Source: an uncultured Thiotrichales bacterium
GTDB taxonomy: Bacteria; Pseudomonadota; Gammaproteobacteria; UBA4575
DNA: 64,000 bases
Assembly (NCBI GenBank): GCA_964614915.1
Contig: CAZTNC010000015.1
Location: 19,096-83,095 of the forward strand
Direction: 5' to 3'
Below are positions 10,280 through 19,961 of this stretch, piece by piece. The position numbers and the translations under genes were made by a program. Below the pieces are notes generated by a model. That model was not told the DNA's origin. It saw only the letters and a program-made list of their open reading frames with translations, and ran no database searches. Positions within the stretch are counted from its first letter, which is position 1; the number at the start of each line of letters is the position of its first letter.

Positions 10280-10358
10280 AGTGTTATGTTAATTCGTAAT
10301 GTAACACCTTACAGTGCAGGTTAAAAACAAACCAGTCGTCCTGAGTCTCTACGAAATC

Positions 10359-11246
10359 ATGGATCGATACAAGACCAAGGAAGACGCCATTTGCTACTTT
10401 GAAAAAATGCGATGGGGTGACAAGCCCGTATGCGTCAAGTGTGGTTGTACAGGCAGGATTACGGCACAGAAGAAAGTCGGTGATTACTGGTGTGGAGACT
10501 GCCGGAGTTACTTTAATGCTTTCACTGGCACTCCACTAGAACGCAACAAGGTAGACCCTCGCAAGTGGATTTACGCCACCTACACCCTGATGACTTCACG
10601 GAAAGGTATTTCCAGCCTTCAACTGTCCAAAGAAATTGGTGTGCAGCAGCGCACTGCCTGGTACATGCTGCACCGGCTGCGTCTGGCCTGCGGCGACAAT
10701 ATGGAAGCCTTGCACGGTGAAGTTGAAATGGATGCAACATACATCGGTGGACTTGAAAGGAACAAGCACGCTGACAAAAGGTTGAAGTCCGGCAGAGGTA
10801 CGGTAGGTAAACAGGCTGTGCTCGGTATGAAACAGCGCGAAGGACGGGTAAAGGCCATATCGGTTGAGGGTGAAGACAAGGCAACTATTCACAGTGCTGT
10901 TCTTGCAAATATTGAAGTGGGTACGACTATCTATACAGATGATCATAGGGGCTACAAGAATATCGGCGGGACTATATACAAACATCAAACCGTCAAGCAT
11001 TCGGCAAAGGAATACGTGAATGGCATGGCTCATACCAACAGCGTCGAGTCTGTATGGTCAGTGCTCAAACGCGGCTTCAATGGTGTCTATCACAATTGGA
11101 GCAAAAAGCATTGCCAACAGTACGTGAACGAATTTACCTTTCGGCTGAATGAAGGGAATTGTGATCGAGACACCCAGGACCGGCTCGACGATCTGTTCAA
11201 GGCGATGTCGGGTAAAACGATAACTTATAGAGCGCTGACTTCTTGA
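10359..11246 (+). CDS. IS1595 family transposase (N-terminal zinc ribbon plus DDE_Tnp_IS1595)
   Basis: CVKCGC...CGDC zinc ribbon; IYTDDHRGY, HTNSVESVWSVLKR and YVNEFTFRLN motifs characteristic of IS1595/ISXO2-like transposases; ORF open from 10314, ATG at 10359. Confidence 0.85.
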   Translation: MDRYKTKEDAICYFEKMRWGDKPVCVKCGCTGRITAQKKVGDYWCGDCRSYFNAFTGTPLERNKVDPRKWIYATYTLMTSRKGISSLQLSKEIGVQQRTAWYMLHRLRLACGDNMEALHGEVEMDATYIGGLERNKHADKRLKSGRGTVGKQAVLGMKQREGRVKAISVEGEDKATIHSAVLANIEVGTTIYTDDHRGYKNIGGTIYKHQTVKHSAKEYVNGMAHTNSVESVWSVLKRGFNGVYHNWSKKHCQQYVNEFTFRLNEGNCDRDTQDRLDDLFKAMSGKTITYRALTS

Positions 11247-11279: not shown

Positions 11280-11813
11280 TTAAGCGGAATTTTCTGCACG
11301 TTTAAAATCTTTTGCAGAAAACCGGTACCAGTTGCGGAACAAATGTTGCCACCACTTTACTGGTTGAAAATCATCTGAGCCAAACCCAAGCGCCTGTGAT
11401 GCGGCATTTCCGCACTCAGCATTAAGAGCGTGATAGATAGCAGGTTCATCCTCATAAACGCTGAGTATTTCTTGACGCCACTTATGTATTTCCTTTTCAT
11501 CAGCTTTATACACGTCGATCATCTTGGCAATTTCATAAAAACGCTTCGCAAGAAATTCATGGTTACGTGCCCTGTCTGCCAGGCCCCACACCATGTTGAT
11601 AGCCCCTATTGTAGTGGGTATAAGCATGATAAACATGGCAACTGCTTTGTTGGCTTCTGCAAGCTGCCACACGGCATAACTGCCTGACAGCAATACTGCT
11701 ACCATCAGCCACCTGTGCCATTTATCAAAAAAAGATCGTCGTGCAGTGTGGTAGCGAGCGCTACGGTCACAATCATGCAGAAAATCTTTTGCTTCCTGTT
11801 GCAGATCAGTCAT
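11280..11813 (-). CDS. two-TM membrane protein with about 100-aa cytoplasmic C-terminal domain (SLATT-like architecture)
   Basis: 177 aa; TM helices at about aa 35-51 and 57-78; start ATG overlaps the stop of the upstream peptide gene (ATGACTGA). Confidence 0.55.
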   Translation of the reverse strand: MTDLQQEAKDFLHDCDRSARYHTARRSFFDKWHRWLMVAVLLSGSYAVWQLAEANKAVAMFIMLIPTTIGAINMVWGLADRARNHEFLAKRFYEIAKMIDVYKADEKEIHKWRQEILSVYEDEPAIYHALNAECGNAASQALGFGSDDFQPVKWWQHLFRNWYRFSAKDFKRAENSA

Positions 11814-11994: not shown

Positions 11995-12996
11995 TTATTC
12001 ATGAGGTAGAGGACAATCTATGCAGCCTCCTGGAGGTGGTGTAGCACCTGAATTGGAATTCTTGAAAGCGGCAGTTGACCCATAAAAAGCCCCGACAAAA
12101 CTTACAGGGCCTACATTGGTTATTGTCGCAGAACCTCCATGGGTTCCTGCCACCATGCGAGGGTTGCCATCAGAATCATCTTCAGACGAGAATCGACCAC
12201 CCCAACGTCCTCCCATATTGGCAACACCCAGTTGCGGATTCTGAAGCACCACCTCGCTTCCAGTAAACGAGCCGTCAGCATTGATGCTGGCGTCAATTAG
12301 CTGGAGTACGAATGGAGTCAGCACGTACCGGCCTCCCTGTAGCAATTCTATGTTCGTAATATCCCCGTCAACGGTCATGGCCCCGGTACTGAAGTCTGCT
12401 TCAAGAAACAGGCTGCCCCGGTACTCTCCCGTAGCCGAACCAAGTACGTAGGTGCCACCTGTAATCCCGTTGTAATCGACTTCACCTACGTTTACGGGAA
12501 TTGTCGGCTGTGTAGACGTTGAAAATTCTTCGCCGTCCACAAAAGCCCCGATTTCCACGCTTCCACCCGATGATCTGTAGGACCAGTACCCACCCGCCAG
12601 GTAGTCCGTAGCATCACCCGAATTCCAGTCCACCAACACACCGGCTCTAACGTTGCTTCCAACCAAAGTACCTGTCTGGGACATTCTTCCCGTAACTGAA
12701 CTGGTTTCAGGATTCTGGATGATGGAAGAACCGCTCGTATTCAATGTAAATGAACTACCTCCTGCACGGGCTACCGTGACTTCAAAACTTGATCCGGGTG
12801 TGAAACGTGTACTGATGGTGTCCGAAGCTACTGCCTGGATAATACTTGTCCCAAACACCGGTGGTGACATGGCGGCTCGTTCTGCGGCATCACTGTAGGA
12901 TACGGGTGGGTTGACAGGGGCAGGATCGCTTCCGCCTCCACCTCCGCCTCCACAGGCGGACAGCAGCACTAAGGCTGCACATAGAATTCTTCGCAT
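11995..12996 (-). CDS. surface-lipoprotein-like protein with fHbp/TbpB-type C-terminal beta-barrel signature
   Basis: lipobox LLSAC followed by a GGGGGGGS tether; G-YRG-LF-EADF-TG-M-VDGDI resembles the G.YRG..F...A.F.DF...G.I motif of neisserial fHbp/TbpB barrels; ATG at 12996 with a GAGG Shine-Dalgarno (ORF open from GTG 13035). Confidence 0.6.
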   Translation of the reverse strand: MRRILCAALVLLSACGGGGGGGSDPAPVNPPVSYSDAAERAAMSPPVFGTSIIQAVASDTISTRFTPGSSFEVTVARAGGSSFTLNTSGSSIIQNPETSSVTGRMSQTGTLVGSNVRAGVLVDWNSGDATDYLAGGYWSYRSSGGSVEIGAFVDGEEFSTSTQPTIPVNVGEVDYNGITGGTYVLGSATGEYRGSLFLEADFSTGAMTVDGDITNIELLQGGRYVLTPFVLQLIDASINADGSFTGSEVVLQNPQLGVANMGGRWGGRFSSEDDSDGNPRMVAGTHGGSATITNVGPVSFVGAFYGSTAAFKNSNSGATPPPGGCIDCPLPHE

Positions 12997-13182
12997 GGTT
13001 GCCTCGCGTAAAGTGACGTTTTTTACTTCCGACACAAGGGTGCCGGGCCATTGTCACTGTACGCAAGTATGCGGATAGTTCCTGCCTATTCGCCGTGTGT
13101 CAGATAGCTACTTCTGACACATATATTCGGCTGTTGTATTCAGTAGGTAACCCGACTCTGGATTACTCACGCACAGTGACAG

Positions 13183-15005: not shown

Positions 15006-15839
15006 CTAGTTTCCAGGCGGCATCTCGTCCATGAGCAAGCCGGGATCGAGGCGCTGCTGATGCCAGTTCATCCTCCAGTCCAGATGAGGGCCGGTGACCC
15101 GGCCTGTGGCGCCCACCAGGGCAATGGGCTGCCCCTGCTCCACGTACTCATCCACCTCGACCAGAATCTCCTGCAGGTGCAAAAAGGACGATGACAGGTT
15201 CTGGCCGTGGTCCACAACTAGCGTGCCTCCTGAAAAATACATGTCCTCGGCGTAAGTCACTCGCCCGGAGGCAGGTGCGAGAACCCGTGTCCCGACGGGT
15301 GCGGCAATATCAATACCATAATGGGGCTGGCGCGGCTGGCCGTTGAGAATTCGCTGGCTGCCGTAAATACCCGAAATTCGCCCCCGTACAGGCCATATGA
15401 AGCCTGCTTTGAAATCCATGCGATCCTCATCGAGGCTTCGCGCAGCTGCAATTTCTGCACTTTCCCTGCGAACCCGGCGCATGATCTGTGGCCCCGGATT
15501 CACCTGGGCGTCTGGCAATCCATCGATGCGCTGGATGTCATACTCACGTCCTGCGATCTCAAACGTGTGCGAGCGCACAGCTCCTTCTTTCGTCTGAACG
15601 GTGACGGTTGCCTGGGGAGGGTAGTCCCGGCCAAACCCGAGAATGAATTCGCCGCTCGAGGAAACACGCACGGGACGCCCGTTCGTCCATACCTTCGAGT
15701 TCGGGCTCACTTGCCCAAAAGCCAGTCCACCCTGAATCAGGTTGCCAGTCAGTGAAAGATTTCCCGGTCCGGCATTTGCGAGCAGGAAAATTGTCAACCC
15801 GGCCCACGCGAGCGCAATCCTGGCACAGGCATGCATCAT
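15006..15839 (-). CDS. M23 family metallopeptidase (LytM domain)
   Basis: HYGIDIAAPVGTRV...VDHGQNLSSSFLHL matches the HxxxD / HxH LytM signature; signal peptide from the ATG at 15839. Confidence 0.75.
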   Translation of the reverse strand: MMHACARIALAWAGLTIFLLANAGPGNLSLTGNLIQGGLAFGQVSPNSKVWTNGRPVRVSSSGEFILGFGRDYPPQATVTVQTKEGAVRSHTFEIAGREYDIQRIDGLPDAQVNPGPQIMRRVRRESAEIAAARSLDEDRMDFKAGFIWPVRGRISGIYGSQRILNGQPRQPHYGIDIAAPVGTRVLAPASGRVTYAEDMYFSGGTLVVDHGQNLSSSFLHLQEILVEVDEYVEQGQPIALVGATGRVTGPHLDWRMNWHQQRLDPGLLMDEMPPGN

Positions 15840-15992
15840 CCGGTAATCCAGCACCGAGCCGGTGCCCTGCCCTCTTGCATGGCCTGGTCCTCTAGAAAAT
15901 TTTGTCAATTAATGCCCGACAGACGGGCTGCCCGGTCTTTCAACCGGGCAGAATACTGGCGATTGCCAGAAAATCAGATAGCGAGTGCGCCC

Positions 15993-16694
15993 TCAGGCGG
16001 GTCCGTACTGAAACGCCGAGGACAGCCCGGCCTTGCCGGATTCGTACCAGTCAACGCCGTTGTCATGGTAACGAGCCCGCTTGGACATATGCAACGTGAT
16101 CGGGTTATGCGGCGCAACCGCAAGCGGTGTGTGGGCCAGGATGATGTCCTTGCCGTCTTCCCCTTTGATGGGGTGGATATCAATTTCCCCTGCGCCTTCC
16201 ACGACCAGGTGCTTCCTCTCGGGAGTATCCATGATGCTGATGTTGGCCTTCTCAATACTGAGGACCTCGCTGATCAGGCTCGCGATGATGCCCAGGTGGC
16301 CTCCGCCTCCCCCGGTCCACAATGTCTTCAACGCTTCGAACTGCGCATCGTTCGCCTGATTATCAACGTACAGGGCTGCGCGCCAGTTGCCGTTGAGAAG
16401 ATTCCCGGGGGCATGCAGCCAGACCGACACTTTCATGCCGTCCAGGCTGACATCACCGTAGTGACCCTTGTCGATTTTCCAGCCAACGAGAGCCGTGCAT
16501 GAACCCACGGTCGGGTCATTCAGCAAAAGACAGGGGCATACGTTATCGCAGGTACAGGACTCGAAATAGTTGCCCATCACTTTCCAGTCCACTGCGTTTT
16601 CGGTCGAAGCCTGCGAAAGCCCAAGTCCTGTCGACCCCAAGGCCAACGTGCTTCCGGTAGCTTTTAAAAATTTTCTTCTGTTAAAAATTGACAT
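15993..16694 (-). CDS. DUF1326-like protein, Tat-exported paralogue
   Basis: twin-arginine signal MSIFNRRKFLKATGS...SQA; conserved NYFESCTCDNVCPC core; AGGAGA Shine-Dalgarno; family assignment (DUF1326, PF07040) is from memory. Confidence 0.65.
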   Translation of the reverse strand: MSIFNRRKFLKATGSTLALGSTGLGLSQASTENAVDWKVMGNYFESCTCDNVCPCLLLNDPTVGSCTALVGWKIDKGHYGDVSLDGMKVSVWLHAPGNLLNGNWRAALYVDNQANDAQFEALKTLWTGGGGGHLGIIASLISEVLSIEKANISIMDTPERKHLVVEGAGEIDIHPIKGEDGKDIILAHTPLAVAPHNPITLHMSKRARYHDNGVDWYESGKAGLSSAFQYGPA

Positions 16695-17069
16695 GCTAGT
16701 TTCTCCTGCCATCTCATCTGACATCGCTCCGGTTCGCATGAGCCAAACCGGTCGTCTCAAAAAATAGTCTATCGCATACTATAGCCCAAAATGGCTACTC
16801 TTTAAACATGCCTGTTCGTTTCCGGACCTGCTCGACACCGCATTCCTGGCAGGATCTCGGAATATGAACCGGATCAACAGGTTAGACGGTTCTCCTGTCT
16901 ATCTCCAAATGAGTGGGGCGCTGCCTTGCCAAAAACGGCAGCGGAAGAGAAATGGACGGGGCCCGAGTGGGCCGCGGCATGCCATTCGTGCCGCCTGCGC
17001 ACTGGAACCCGAGCCTGCGAAGGCCCGGATTTCAATGCATGTGCTGTTTATTAGGAGCCTGGACCTGGC

Positions 17070-17678
17070 TTAGCCGGGCCCGTACTGAAATGGTGACGCC
17101 AGACCGGCTTTGCCGGATTCATTCCAGTCGATACCATTATCGCTGTACTGTGCAATCTTGGACTCATGCAGGGTGACCGCATTTCCCGGAGCCACTGCAA
17201 GCGGCATGCCGGATACCATGACAGGCTTGCCCTCTTCTCCTTCCATTGCAACGATCTCGTTTTCCCCGATCCCCTCAATCACCAGGTGCTTCCTTTCCGG
17301 CGTGCTCTCAAAGCTGATGTTTGCTTTCTTGACGCTCAGAACATCGCTGACCAGGCCTGCAATCACCGCCAGGTGACCACCGCCTTCGCCACTCCACAAG
17401 GCGCCGATAGCATCGAACTGTGCATCATCTGCACTCTCATCTACGTACAGCGCCAAACGCCAGTTGCCTGCCGTGAGGTTGCCCGGCGCATGCAGCCAGA
17501 CTGCAACCTTGATTCCGTCCAGACTGACATCGCCATAATGTCCCTTCTCGATGCTCCAGCCGACGAGAGCCGTACATGTACCCACGGTCGGATCTTTCAA
17601 TAATAGACATGGGCATAAATTGTCACAGGTGCAAGACTCGAAATAGTTGCCTTCCACACTCCAGTCTGTCGTCGCCAT
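17070..17678 (-). CDS. DUF1326-like protein, cytoplasmic paralogue
   Basis: about 65% identical to the upstream paralogue, same Cys motif, no signal peptide; GGGAGG Shine-Dalgarno before the ATG at 17678. Confidence 0.65.
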   Translation of the reverse strand: MATTDWSVEGNYFESCTCDNLCPCLLLKDPTVGTCTALVGWSIEKGHYGDVSLDGIKVAVWLHAPGNLTAGNWRLALYVDESADDAQFDAIGALWSGEGGGHLAVIAGLVSDVLSVKKANISFESTPERKHLVIEGIGENEIVAMEGEEGKPVMVSGMPLAVAPGNAVTLHESKIAQYSDNGIDWNESGKAGLASPFQYGPG

Positions 17679-17930
17679 AGCGTCACCTCCCGGCCTTCTG
17701 GATAAATACGAAGCCTGCCAGCAACGCTGGCAGAACTGTGTTTGAGTATAGCCTAAAAAAGTGGGGCTTGAAACACCCCACGGCGGCGGCAATCCTGTGC
17801 TGGACTTTCATGTATACAGGCAATCCAGTATGATCCTGCTGATGATTCTGACTGTTTGTTTGACTCCCGCGACGACACGGTTTGCATGCCCGTAAACCGG
17901 TCATCTGACCGACCCAAGTAAGGCACTCCC

Positions 17931-18728
17931 ATGAACACCCCTCCCCCTGTTGCAGGACTTTCTCCACGAGACAAAAAGATCGTCATCTCAGGACTGATCC
18001 TGGTGGCGGGTGTGAGCTGGCTGTACATAATTTACATGGCTTGGGCGATGGAGAACATGCACCTGGTCGATATGTGGATGCCTCCGATGGGTGGCATGCG
18101 TGCATGGACGGCATGGGACTTCCTCATGCTCTTTCTCATGTGGTACATCATGATGATTGCCATGATGACCCCGAGCGTTTCGCCGATGGTCATGATGTTC
18201 ACCACCGTGAGCCGGCAAAAGAAGCTCAGACAACAGCCCTATGCACCTACCTTCATTTTCCTGGCGGGATACCTGGTCGCCTGGGCTCTGTTCAGTTTTT
18301 TTGCAAGTGCCGTCCAGTGGCCCCTGCATGGAAGCAAACTGCTCGATCCCATGATGTACACCGACAGCTACCTGCTGAGCGGCTCGATCCTGGTGCTGGC
18401 AGGGGTCTACCAAATGACGCCGATGAAAGACGCATGTCTGAACCAGTGCAGAACCCCGCTCGGCTTTTTGATGGCTGCCTGGAAGGATGGCAAGAGCGGA
18501 GCCTTCCAGATGGGCCTGTACCACGGGATGTTCTGTGTGGGTTGCTGTTGGGCACTGATGGCAGTGCTGCTGGCTGTAGGCGTGATGAACATGCTCTGGG
18601 TTTTGCTGATTGCAGTCTTTGTTCTTCTTGAAAAAATTCTTCCATTCTCTGCGACCACGACTCGCATGATCACGGGCGCAGGGCTGATTATCTGGGGCGG
18701 TTACTGGCTGAGCCTTCACCCCTGGTAA
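17931..18728 (+). CDS. DUF2182-like predicted metal-binding integral membrane protein
   Basis: 265 aa, Met/His-rich with multiple TM helices and a CVGCC motif; divergent from the DUF1326-like genes, a pairing I recall as recurrent. Confidence 0.6.
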   Translation: MNTPPPVAGLSPRDKKIVISGLILVAGVSWLYIIYMAWAMENMHLVDMWMPPMGGMRAWTAWDFLMLFLMWYIMMIAMMTPSVSPMVMMFTTVSRQKKLRQQPYAPTFIFLAGYLVAWALFSFFASAVQWPLHGSKLLDPMMYTDSYLLSGSILVLAGVYQMTPMKDACLNQCRTPLGFLMAAWKDGKSGAFQMGLYHGMFCVGCCWALMAVLLAVGVMNMLWVLLIAVFVLLEKILPFSATTTRMITGAGLIIWGGYWLSLHPW

Positions 18729-19009
18729 GAGATCTCTGCTGAAAGTTTTCTGGCATTTCAGTATCCAGTGAAATTCGTATAGCGCACGATCCAGTTCTGG
18801 GCTTTTGCTTCACTCCCAGGGTCCCAGTTCCCCGGTGCATTTTCTAGTACATCAAGTCTGGAATACACACCGTGGCATCAACATCCCTGACAAAACGTTG
18901 ATGGATAAAATCGATGGCAGCCATCATTATTTTCCGATGTTCCGAATCGGCTCTTTACCTAAAATAGGATCATCGTATTTATAAAGGGAATCGACCATAG
19001 GAGCGAATC

Positions 19010-19501
19010 ATGGAACAGGCAACACCATTGCCGATTGACATTGACATCGGCATCCCCGAACTCCAGCGCAAGGAAATTGCAACCGGCCTGAGCCGGCTGC
19101 TTGCGGATACCTATACGCTGTACCTGAAAACCCACAACTACCACTGGAATGTAACCGGGCCCATGTTCACTACCCTGCATACCATGTTTGAGCAACAATA
19201 CCAGGAGCTCGCTCTGGCCGTGGACGAAATCGCTGAGCGAATCCGGGCGCTGGGTATTTTTGCACCCGGTTCCTACAGCAGGTTCAAGGAACTCACCCAG
19301 ATCGATGAGGAAACACGTGTGCCGAGTGCCAAGGAGATGATCCACCAGCTGGTCCTGGGGCAGGAAGCCGTGGTGCGCACCGCTCGGGAGATCTTTCCGG
19401 TCATTGATGCGGCAAACGACGAACCCACTGCCGATTTGGTTACAAATCGCATGCAGACACACGAGAAAACCGCCTGGATGCTGAGAAGTTTGCTGCAATA
19501 A
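19010..19501 (+). CDS. dps: DNA starvation/stationary-phase protection protein Dps
   Basis: ferritin-like HNYHWNVTG...LHTMFEQ ferroxidase-site motifs. Confidence 0.9.
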
Positions 19502-19628: not shown

Positions 19629-19961
19629 ATGTTTGGGTTCGGTGGCAAAAAAAATAAGGACTTCAAGGCAACGATTTTGAACACGGGCCAGACCTTTGAT
19701 GTCAAAGGCGGCATAAACCTGCTGCAGGCTGCAAAAAATGCCGGCATTGACTGGCCATGCGACTGCAAGGTCGGTTCATGCGGGACCTGCCGCGCCAAGC
19801 TGGTCAGCGGTAAAGTCAAGGAACTGACGGACTTCACCTACACGCTCGATGGAGAGATGCTGAAAGCGAACTATATCCTGGCCTGCCAGGCCAGGCTGAA
19901 AACAGATGTTGAGGTGGAAGTAGATTTCGACCAGACGGCGGTCAATCCGGAATACATCTGA
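19629..19961 (+). CDS. 2Fe-2S ferredoxin
   Basis: 110 aa with C-x4-C-x2-C and a distal Cys (CDCKVGSCGTC...C). Confidence 0.75.
   Translation: MFGFGGKKNKDFKATILNTGQTFDVKGGINLLQAAKNAGIDWPCDCKVGSCGTCRAKLVSGKVKELTDFTYTLDGEMLKANYILACQARLKTDVEVEVDFDQTAVNPEYI

Follow-up and report, generated by a model that had tools for sequence, protein, structure and literature searches.

The Pfam family PF09948 (DUF2182) now bears the name 'PpoB2, copper chaperone' after PpoB2 of Marinomonas mediterranea (COG5486), a membrane protein that this organism specifically requires for transferring copper to tyrosinase (PMC2855505). In Roseobacters, a DUF2182 protein and a DUF1326 protein (PF07040) form a pair, for which the names DmdE (DUF2182) and DmdF (DUF1326) have been introduced in a study of Ruegeria lacuscaerulensis (EMBO J, February 2026; PMC12992908). 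There, DmdE and DmdF knock-outs did not grow on dimethylsulfoniopropionate (DMSP), deletion of dmdA partly rescued the dmdE mutant, and DmdE was found not to be a DMSP transporter. With purified DmdF, consumption of H2O2 and a peroxidase signal in gels were observed, and reactive oxygen species (ROS) were increased in the dmdF mutant (PMC12992908). An original prediction, made from the DNA sequence of the locus described below, had called the function of the DUF1326/DUF2182 pairing uncharacterised, which is out of date in view of the copper role of PpoB2 and of the phenotypes and peroxidase activity reported for DmdE/DmdF; the mechanism of the pair is, however, still not established in the literature. 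Here we describe such a pair from an uncultured marine Thiotrichales bacterium (contig CAZTNC010000015.1, positions 19,096 to 83,095 of the forward strand; this whole stretch of 64,000 nucleotides is called the window), in which one DUF2182 gene is accompanied by two tandem DUF1326 genes, one of them with a predicted twin-arginine translocation (Tat) signal. The reading we prefer, and which we regard as standing about evenly between right and wrong, is that DUF1326 and DUF2182 constitute a transition-metal unit, likeliest for Cu(I), at the inner membrane, and that in this organism the soluble partner has been duplicated so as to be present on both membrane faces.

The region consists of three genes, two for DUF1326 proteins in tandem on the minus strand and one for a DUF2182 protein on the plus strand:

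15993–16694, minus strand: Tat-signal DUF1326 paralogue (Tat copy), 233 amino acids, N-terminus MSIFNRRKFLK, ribosome-binding site AGGAGA
17070–17678, minus strand: cytoplasmic DUF1326 paralogue (cytoplasmic copy), 202 amino acids, N-terminus MATTDW, without signal peptide
17931–18728, plus strand: DUF2182/PpoB2-family polytopic membrane protein, 265 amino acids, seven predicted helices, N-terminus predicted to be inside

The two DUF1326 genes are separated by a spacer of 375 bp (16695–17069), and the DUF2182 gene diverges from the cytoplasmic copy across a spacer of 252 bp. The tandem and the divergently transcribed DUF2182 gene had already been recognized in the original prediction, of which the observations hold overall with small corrections and the interpretation in part. 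The partner across the divergent spacer is the cytoplasmic copy and not the Tat copy. The family assignments are borne out by profile matches that lie far above the cut-offs. PF07040 (cut-off 25 bits) matches the Tat copy with E = 5.8e-46 (157.3 bits) and the cytoplasmic copy with E = 3.9e-48 (164.4 bits), both over profile positions 1–176 of 177, and PF09948 (cut-off 28.7 bits) matches the DUF2182 protein with E = 5.5e-65 (219.3 bits) over profile positions 1–186 of 188.

The Tat copy and the cytoplasmic copy are 71% identical over 197 amino acids in an ungapped alignment. They are thus a closely similar tandem, as had been predicted, although the figure of about 65% given for their identity was too low, and the mature exported protein would be colinear with the cytoplasmic one. 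The cysteine-cluster motif NYFESCTCDN(V/L)CPCLL that they had been said to have in common is indeed found in both. In an alignment of 46 DUF1326 family members, C16, C18, C22, C24 and C35 (residue numbering of the cytoplasmic copy) are invariant in 46 of 46, as are P23, P30, D80, Q87, G100 and G101, and at least 90% of the sequences retain H102. Both copies in the window have the five invariant cysteines together with G100, G101 and H102, i.e., a CxCx3CxC...C cluster and a GGH motif, which in the Tat copy is retained as GGGH. The Tat and cytoplasmic copies differ by 20 fixed positions, the changes being mainly conservative, and among these 20 residues no obvious new set of ligands was found. 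The DUF1326 fold is predicted to be a beta-cone of the acetoacetate decarboxylase-like superfamily, with acetoacetate decarboxylase (ADC), MppR, Swit_4259 and Diels-Alderases as fold relatives at 3–9% identity. The likeness to these proteins is in fold alone, whereas the cysteine cluster is confined to DUF1326. Sequence searches of the Protein Data Bank (PDB) with DUF1326 and DUF2182 gave no meaningful match.

The N-terminal extension that distinguishes the Tat copy reads as follows:

16608–16694, minus strand: Tat signal peptide, residues 1–29 of the Tat copy, MSIFNRRKFLKATGSTLALGSTGLGLSQA, predicted cleavage after SQA

By inspection of the sequence, NRRKFLK fits the (S/T)RRxFLK consensus and is followed by a mildly hydrophobic h-region, ATGSTLALGSTGLGL, and then by SQA. 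The cytoplasmic copy has no N-terminal extension, so that a twin-arginine signal is present solely on the first copy, as had been predicted. It should be noted that the Tat copy of the window scores 16.5 bits with TIGR01409, just below the cut-off of 16.7 bits, and that the Pfam TAT_signal model does not match it. Three of its orthologues pass TIGR01409, namely P0001 (18.6 bits), P0004 (17.7 bits) and P0005 (18.5 bits). The orthologues are equal in length and 79–87% identical, and the RRKFLK motif, the h-region and SQA are kept in L001, L003, L004, L005, L008 and L010 as well as in the window, i.e., in seven of seven loci of the clade, despite a synonymous divergence among them of up to about 0.7. 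The original prediction had named absence of the motif among orthologues as a finding that would speak against it; the motif is there in every orthologous locus. We infer from these features that the Tat copy is probably exported to the periplasm.

How this arrangement relates to the common one was examined in a scan with one genome per species, which returned 586 relatives, of which the best 80 loci were examined. A DUF2182 gene lies within 6 kb of the DUF1326 gene in 75 of the 80 loci, from many phyla, and the pairing is therefore recurrent, as had been proposed. The two genes also adjoin on bacterial and archaeal plasmids. They are divergent in the close gammaproteobacterial relatives and form a co-directional DUF1326-DUF2182 operon in most other lineages. 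The tandem of a Tat copy and a cytoplasmic copy is limited, among the best 80 loci, to the window and the six orthologous loci named above, all six from uncultured Gammaproteobacteria and two of them on complete chromosomes (1.85 and 1.97 Mb); slightly remoter are Thiothrix and the sponge symbionts of Candidatus Porisulfidus. A neighbor-joining tree places the Tat copies as sister group to the cytoplasmic copies from these genomes, and the next lineage out (L006, L007 and L009) has cytoplasmic copies only. L009 is on a complete chromosome, for which the scan returned no second DUF1326 locus. The tree and the single-copy sister lineage together indicate that the Tat copy is a clade-specific duplicate; as judged from these sequences, it is a hitherto undescribed duplication confined to a single clade of sponge-type gammaproteobacterial metagenome-assembled genomes. 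Among orthologues, the ratio of nonsynonymous to synonymous divergence (dN/dS) is 0.03–0.09 for the Tat copy and 0.03–0.19 for the cytoplasmic copy, and from these low values it follows that both copies are under purifying selection.

The divergence of the window from L001 is uneven. Its Tat copy is identical in protein sequence to that of L001 (dS 0.22), and its cytoplasmic copy is as far from that of L001 as from those of the most distant members of the clade (dS 0.70, dN 0.055) and branches in the tree outside the other cytoplasmic copies, which suggests a recombination breakpoint between the two paralogues.

The other half of the system, the DUF2182 protein, contains 28 methionines (10.6%), five cysteines, including those of a CVGCC motif, and four histidines. 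With the helices taken from the model, 12 Lys + Arg are located in the N-terminus and the even loops versus 2 in the odd loops and the C-terminus, which argues for seven helices with the N-terminus inside, so that the methionine-rich loops would be outside and a CxxxC motif inside. In this predicted topology the outside would carry a Met/His-rich segment, MENMHLVDMWMPPMGGM, and H133, M141 and M142; within the membrane would be M70, M75, M78 and M79 (helix 2) and H198, C202, C205 and C206 (helix 5, CxxCC); and C169 and C173 would form the cytoplasmic CxxxC. In our proposal these outer Met/His-rich loops would capture the metal, which would move on to the intramembrane Met/His/Cys site of helices 2 and 5 and then arrive at the cytoplasmic CxxxC, and the soluble DUF1326 protein with its invariant cysteine cluster would be the partner that accepts or donates the metal. 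In the clade of the window the gene of this partner would have been duplicated together with its promoter, one copy having gained a Tat signal, and near-identical DUF1326 partners would be expected on both faces of the membrane.

That the metal may be copper is indicated by relatives of the membrane protein. The first DUF2182 loop (helices 1–2) is expanded with Met/Asp repeats, e.g., MDMDKPMNMDKPMDM, in a marine gammaproteobacterial clade, and in Thiothrix a complete PCuAC domain (PF04314; E = 4.7e-28 and 2.2e-27) is inserted between helices 1 and 2 of the proteins encoded at

L023, 4464–5780, minus strand: Thiothrix DUF2182 with PCuAC insert, flanked by Met-rich MDMDMD-type runs
L028, 3973–5307, minus strand: Thiothrix DUF2182 with PCuAC insert, likewise flanked by such runs

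The DUF2182-PCuAC architecture comprises nine 90%-identity clusters, with one lineage (P0375) being 52% identical to the rest. PCuAC is a periplasmic Cu(I) chaperone (PMC7558416). Both the insert and the Met/Asp repeats of the loop support the assignment of this loop to the outside, and they fix the topology of DUF2182 and point to Cu(I). The original prediction had spoken of a metal or redox shuttle across the inner membrane; this is plausible, and the Met-rich loops, together with the PCuAC insertion and the topology, lend support to its metal side.

The locus can be compared with several described systems. With PpoB2 the DUF2182 protein has in common that it is a Met/His-rich polytopic membrane protein of the same family. 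PpoB2 is, however, encoded in an operon with its client tyrosinase PpoB1, and a DUF1326 partner does not belong to the PpoB system as described (PMC2855505), whereas in the window there is no cuproenzyme neighbour. With DmdE/DmdF the proteins belong to the same two Pfam families, which are always adjacent and work as a pair. In Roseobacters, however, dmdE-dmdF-dinB are in one operon with dmdA/acuI under the control of DmdR, and no exported DmdF paralogue has been described (PMC12992908), whereas in the window the genes are divergent and a Tat copy is present; dmdR, dmdA, acuI and other DMSP or acrylate genes were not found near the locus. For the split of one cysteine-rich family by compartment there is a precedent in the copper storage proteins (Csps), of which Csp1 is Tat-exported and Csp3 cytosolic (PMC7558416), showing that the same scaffold can be used in both compartments. 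Csps differ in that they serve bulk metal storage and have no dedicated membrane partner, DUF1326 having a single cluster of five cysteines. Finally, a likeness can be proposed to Ctr1 and to the copper importers CcoA/CalT of the major facilitator superfamily (MFS) with respect to outer Met motifs, intramembrane Met/His/Cys residues, an inner Cys motif and a soluble Cys-rich acceptor. Ctr1 imports Cu(I) via Met motifs and passes it on to cytosolic chaperones. No relationship in sequence or fold of DUF2182 to Ctr1 or CcoA/CalT was found, and the analogy is mechanistic.

The export signal of the Tat copy is not the only one in the family. A DUF1326 profile search of 1.84 billion representatives yielded 5,927 family members (representatives of 50%-identity clusters) from bacteria and archaea, and among the best 150 of these 5,927 about seven have Tat-like N-termini and two, P0277 and P0312, have Sec-type signal peptides. 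Fusions of DUF1326 are also found, one with a response-regulator receiver domain (P0205, which lacks a cysteine of the cluster) and one with a bacterial Ig-like domain (P0336). The recurrence of Tat and Sec signals suggests that a DUF1326 protein can function on the cytoplasmic or on the periplasmic side. The Sec-type members in addition indicate that export in the folded state is not obligatory for the family, and it therefore does not follow family-wide that, as had been concluded in the original prediction, a folded and cofactor-loaded copy is exported. In the marine gammaproteobacterial clade mentioned above, which is separate from that of the window and was found at 13 loci, a single DUF1326 protein with an S(R/K)RxF(L/M)KG signal is encoded directly upstream of DUF2182, the two genes being a stand-alone two-gene operon amid housekeeping genes; a representative, P0053, is on 205 contigs and passes TIGR01409 with 19.0 bits. 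A clade with a Tat-type DUF1326, as recognized from its N-terminus, as the sole copy adjoining DUF2182 is to be added to the known arrangements as new.

The spacers contain the following elements, which were compared in an alignment of the window with the six orthologous loci:

17745–17775, minus strand: promoter-like element of the cytoplasmic copy, TGTTTCAAG-N13-GGCTATACT, nearly invariant in the seven orthologous spacers
16778–16808, minus strand: promoter-like element of the Tat copy, TGTTTAAAG-N13-GGCTATAGT, including a sigma-70-like TTTAAA-17-TATAGT
17715–17733, minus strand: stem-loop CTGCCAGC-AAC-GCTGGCAG (on the mRNA strand CUGCCAGC-GUU-GCUGGCAG), a candidate 5' leader element of the cytoplasmic copy or operator palindrome
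17761–17781, no strand assigned: inverted repeat GTGGGG-N9-CCCCAC, which overlaps the cytoplasmic copy's promoter element in its −35-like part

The strongest conserved feature is the promoter-like block at 17745–17775, which is paralogous to the block at 16778–16808, the latter being kept also in L004 and L008. Even with 3 mismatches allowed, these two are the only matches to the element in the 64-kb window, from which we conclude that promoter and gene were duplicated together; going by these elements the two DUF1326 copies are probably expressed alike. The 375-bp spacer is conserved in the relatives, and its coding strand is free of terminator-like sites, so that the transcript of the cytoplasmic copy may read through into the Tat copy, which would thus be transcribed besides from its own promoter-like element. 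The same spacer contains a conserved antisense open reading frame (ORF; 69–119 amino acids, Arg-rich) that does not look protein-coding.

A hairpin with an 8-bp stem in the divergent spacer, which had been predicted, exists, although 4 nucleotides from the predicted position and with a loop of 3 nucleotides (AAC) rather than 4. A check for its conservation in orthologous loci, which had been suggested at the time, gave a divided answer: the stem core CCTGCC/GGCAGG (CCUGCC/GGCAGG in the mRNA) is retained in the six orthologous loci, three of the changes breaking a pair, whereas covariation was not observed, the changes across the six loci being one-sided or pair-breaking with 0 compensatory pairs and a covariation term of 0.06. 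When the 252-bp spacer was shuffled 2000 times, 35 of the shuffles contained a perfect 8-bp hairpin, and there are 17 such hairpins in the whole window; the one at 17715–17733 is thus mildly unusual locally and not exceptional. The whole leader, taken as a single sequence, does not fold better than its shuffles (z = −0.40), and an Rfam scan of 15800–19100 gave no match at E up to 1. With neither covariation nor a better fold, we do not claim a riboswitch or attenuator. The GTGGGG/CCCCAC repeat was likewise found, its arms being spaced by 9 nucleotides and not by 10; in L001, L003, L005, L008 and L010 the left arm is not kept, and covariation was not observed here either, so that the repeat, despite its terminator-like look, is probably incidental. 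A likeness of the repeat to a sigma-32 promoter or a CsoR operator was dropped on our own reading of its spacing and orientation.

Downstream of the DUF2182 gene two conserved neighbours are found, at most candidate members of the module:

19010–19501, plus strand: Dps/ferritin-like gene (PF00210, E = 1.9e-28)
19629–19961, plus strand: gene for a small 2Fe-2S ferredoxin (PF00111, E = 1.6e-18)

The Dps gene is intact in L003, L004, L005, L008 and L010 and absent from the sister lineage L006/L009; in L001 (a Logan contig), comparison of 2427–2582 with 18729–19390 of the window reveals that most of it has been lost, a short C-terminal remnant being left. The distribution of Dps across the loci is hence almost equal to that of the Tat copy. 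The ferredoxin gene is downstream of DUF2182 in the window, L001, L008 and the sister lineage L006/L009. The neighbours in the window and L001 are genes for an M23 peptidase, ATP sulfurylase, Dps, ferredoxin and an MFS/acyltransferase protein. Neighbour clustering of the 80 loci revealed no universal third gene, synteny being clade-specific (MsrA, Dps, ferredoxin). For example, a gene for MsrA (peptide methionine sulfoxide reductase, GCFWG motif) is directly downstream of DUF1326 in nine loci (L013 (6613–7317), L015, L016, L020, L023, L025, L028, L030 and L031) from Porisulfidus, Thiothrix and a related lineage, and is a second recurrent link to the repair of oxidative damage. Further afield, a Bacillus cereus plasmid carries a gene annotated as four-helix-bundle copper-binding protein about 3.5 kb from the pair and a gene of the thioredoxin family nearby, and on a plasmid of Cupriavidus necator (L090, 6470–6697) a 'GDCCVxC domain-containing (seleno)protein', a further small protein with a Cys motif that accompanies the module, is encoded immediately downstream of the DUF1326-DUF2182 operon.

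At lower coordinates than the three genes, the segment 9820–13700 of the window is missing from six of six related loci, of which the alignments skip from about 9816 to about 13702, and it is probably a strain-specific insertion. It contains an IS1595-family transposase gene (10314–11246), an ORF of 65 amino acids, and two ORFs without Pfam match (11280–11813 and 11995–13035), the latter for a Gly-rich putative lipoprotein.

Several of these findings, together with the literature, weigh against a copper unit with partners on both faces. Most genomes have a cytoplasmic DUF1326 only and the marine clade has only the Tat-type protein at the locus, so that the partner is generally on one side and a two-sided relay cannot be the general mode of action. 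We found no literature in which metal content or metal transfer was measured for any DUF1326 protein, the sole biochemical report calls DmdF a peroxidase (PMC12992908), and the beta-cone is an enzyme-like fold and not one known from metallochaperones. No tyrosinase or other cuproenzyme is among the Pfam-annotated genes of the approximately 12-kb L001 locus or the window neighbours examined, and no TatA-like sequence was found within the 64-kb window. On plasmids there are contexts of iron or cobalt: Rhodococcus has an iron-chelate ABC transporter near the pair, and Novosphingobium has a TonB receptor and cobalamin genes, besides a PepSY protein. And the conserved neighbours Dps, MsrA and, in Roseobacters, DinB (PMC12992908) fit oxidative stress rather than copper.

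This last point, to which a cytochrome-c peroxidase gene 3.6 kb from the pair in Ralstonia can be added, is part of the case for the most serious competitor, a defence against peroxide or oxidative stress in which DUF1326 would itself consume H2O2, with isoforms in cytoplasm and periplasm, and DUF2182 would have a supporting role, e.g., in metal supply. The H2O2 consumption and in-gel signal of purified DmdF and the raised ROS of the dmdF mutant speak for it, and a beta-cone fold is typical of enzymes. In the peroxidase assay, however, 440 µg of protein was applied per lane (PMC12992908, legend of Fig. 6), which suggests a low specific activity that, as we see it, could be obtained from any adventitious redox metal. 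The gammaproteobacterial homologues of DmdE/DmdF are, moreover, phylogenetically distinct from those linked to DMSP and not themselves linked to DMSP genes (PMC12992908); a known peroxidase fold or motif was not found; and the invariant Met/His/Cys pathway of DUF2182, its Met-rich periplasmic loops and the PCuAC insertion would be left unexplained. We consider a peroxide defence possible but doubtful. The peroxide and the copper readings would merge if bound copper were the source of the activity reported. Considerably less probable, in our opinion, is a thiol or electron relay of the DsbD/CcdA type, in which electrons would go from a cytoplasmic DUF1326 protein, reduced perhaps via ferredoxin, to the cysteines of DUF2182, from there to the periplasmic DUF1326 protein and finally to a target. 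Cysteine clusters in all three proteins, among them the predicted cytoplasmic CxxxC and mid-membrane CxxCC of DUF2182, near-identical cysteine-cluster proteins predicted on both faces, the ferredoxin gene conserved downstream and the thioredoxin-family gene in B. cereus would all suit such a relay. With one DUF1326 protein on one side in most genomes it would, however, usually be incomplete, and many invariant methionines and Met-rich loops are hallmarks of Cu(I) binding and not of disulfide exchange; these two points are why we rank it low. The common membrane fold with a redox-active Cys pair that characterizes the DsbD/CcdA-type thiol transporters was not found in DUF2182.

There could also be no split between compartments at all, either because the N-terminal extension does not function in export or because the second copy is a redundant duplicate heading for loss. 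The TIGR01409 score slightly below the cut-off, the lack of a match to the Pfam TAT_signal model and the absence of tat genes from the window would be in accordance with this. A decaying signal is difficult to reconcile, however, with the retention of RRKFLK, the h-region and SQA in seven of seven clade loci at the synonymous divergence given above, with orthologues that do pass TIGR01409, and with other DUF1326 lineages that have independently acquired Tat or Sec signals, and a redundant copy is difficult to reconcile with a dN/dS of 0.03–0.09, which is that of a gene under selection; we hold this explanation to be very improbable. There remains the preferred reading, that of a transition-metal unit at the inner membrane, and a more far-reaching version of it, in which DUF2182 and DUF1326 would be an unrecognised inner-membrane route for Cu(I), organized in this clade as a complete relay of three stations, one and the same kind of Cys-cluster beta-cone protein, made in the cytoplasm, serving both faces, with the Tat copy docked at the Met-rich periplasmic face and the cytoplasmic copy at the CxxxC face of DUF2182. 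This version we think unlikely. If it were true, the Tat or Sec signals gained repeatedly and independently in the family would, like the PCuAC insertions, be alternative solutions for the periplasmic half of one Cu(I) pathway.

For the biology of this one organism the finding is a modest one, namely a clade-specific duplication within a known and partly characterised module. For the family it has a wider meaning. The DUF1326/DUF2182 module is very large and lacks a mechanism; one study connects it with the delivery of copper, another with peroxide stress and the turnover of marine DMSP. The locus and its relatives can be regarded as natural experiments on this module, from which it appears that the first outer loop of DUF2182 accepts a bona fide periplasmic copper-chaperone domain and that the soluble partner may work in either compartment and is sometimes kept in both.

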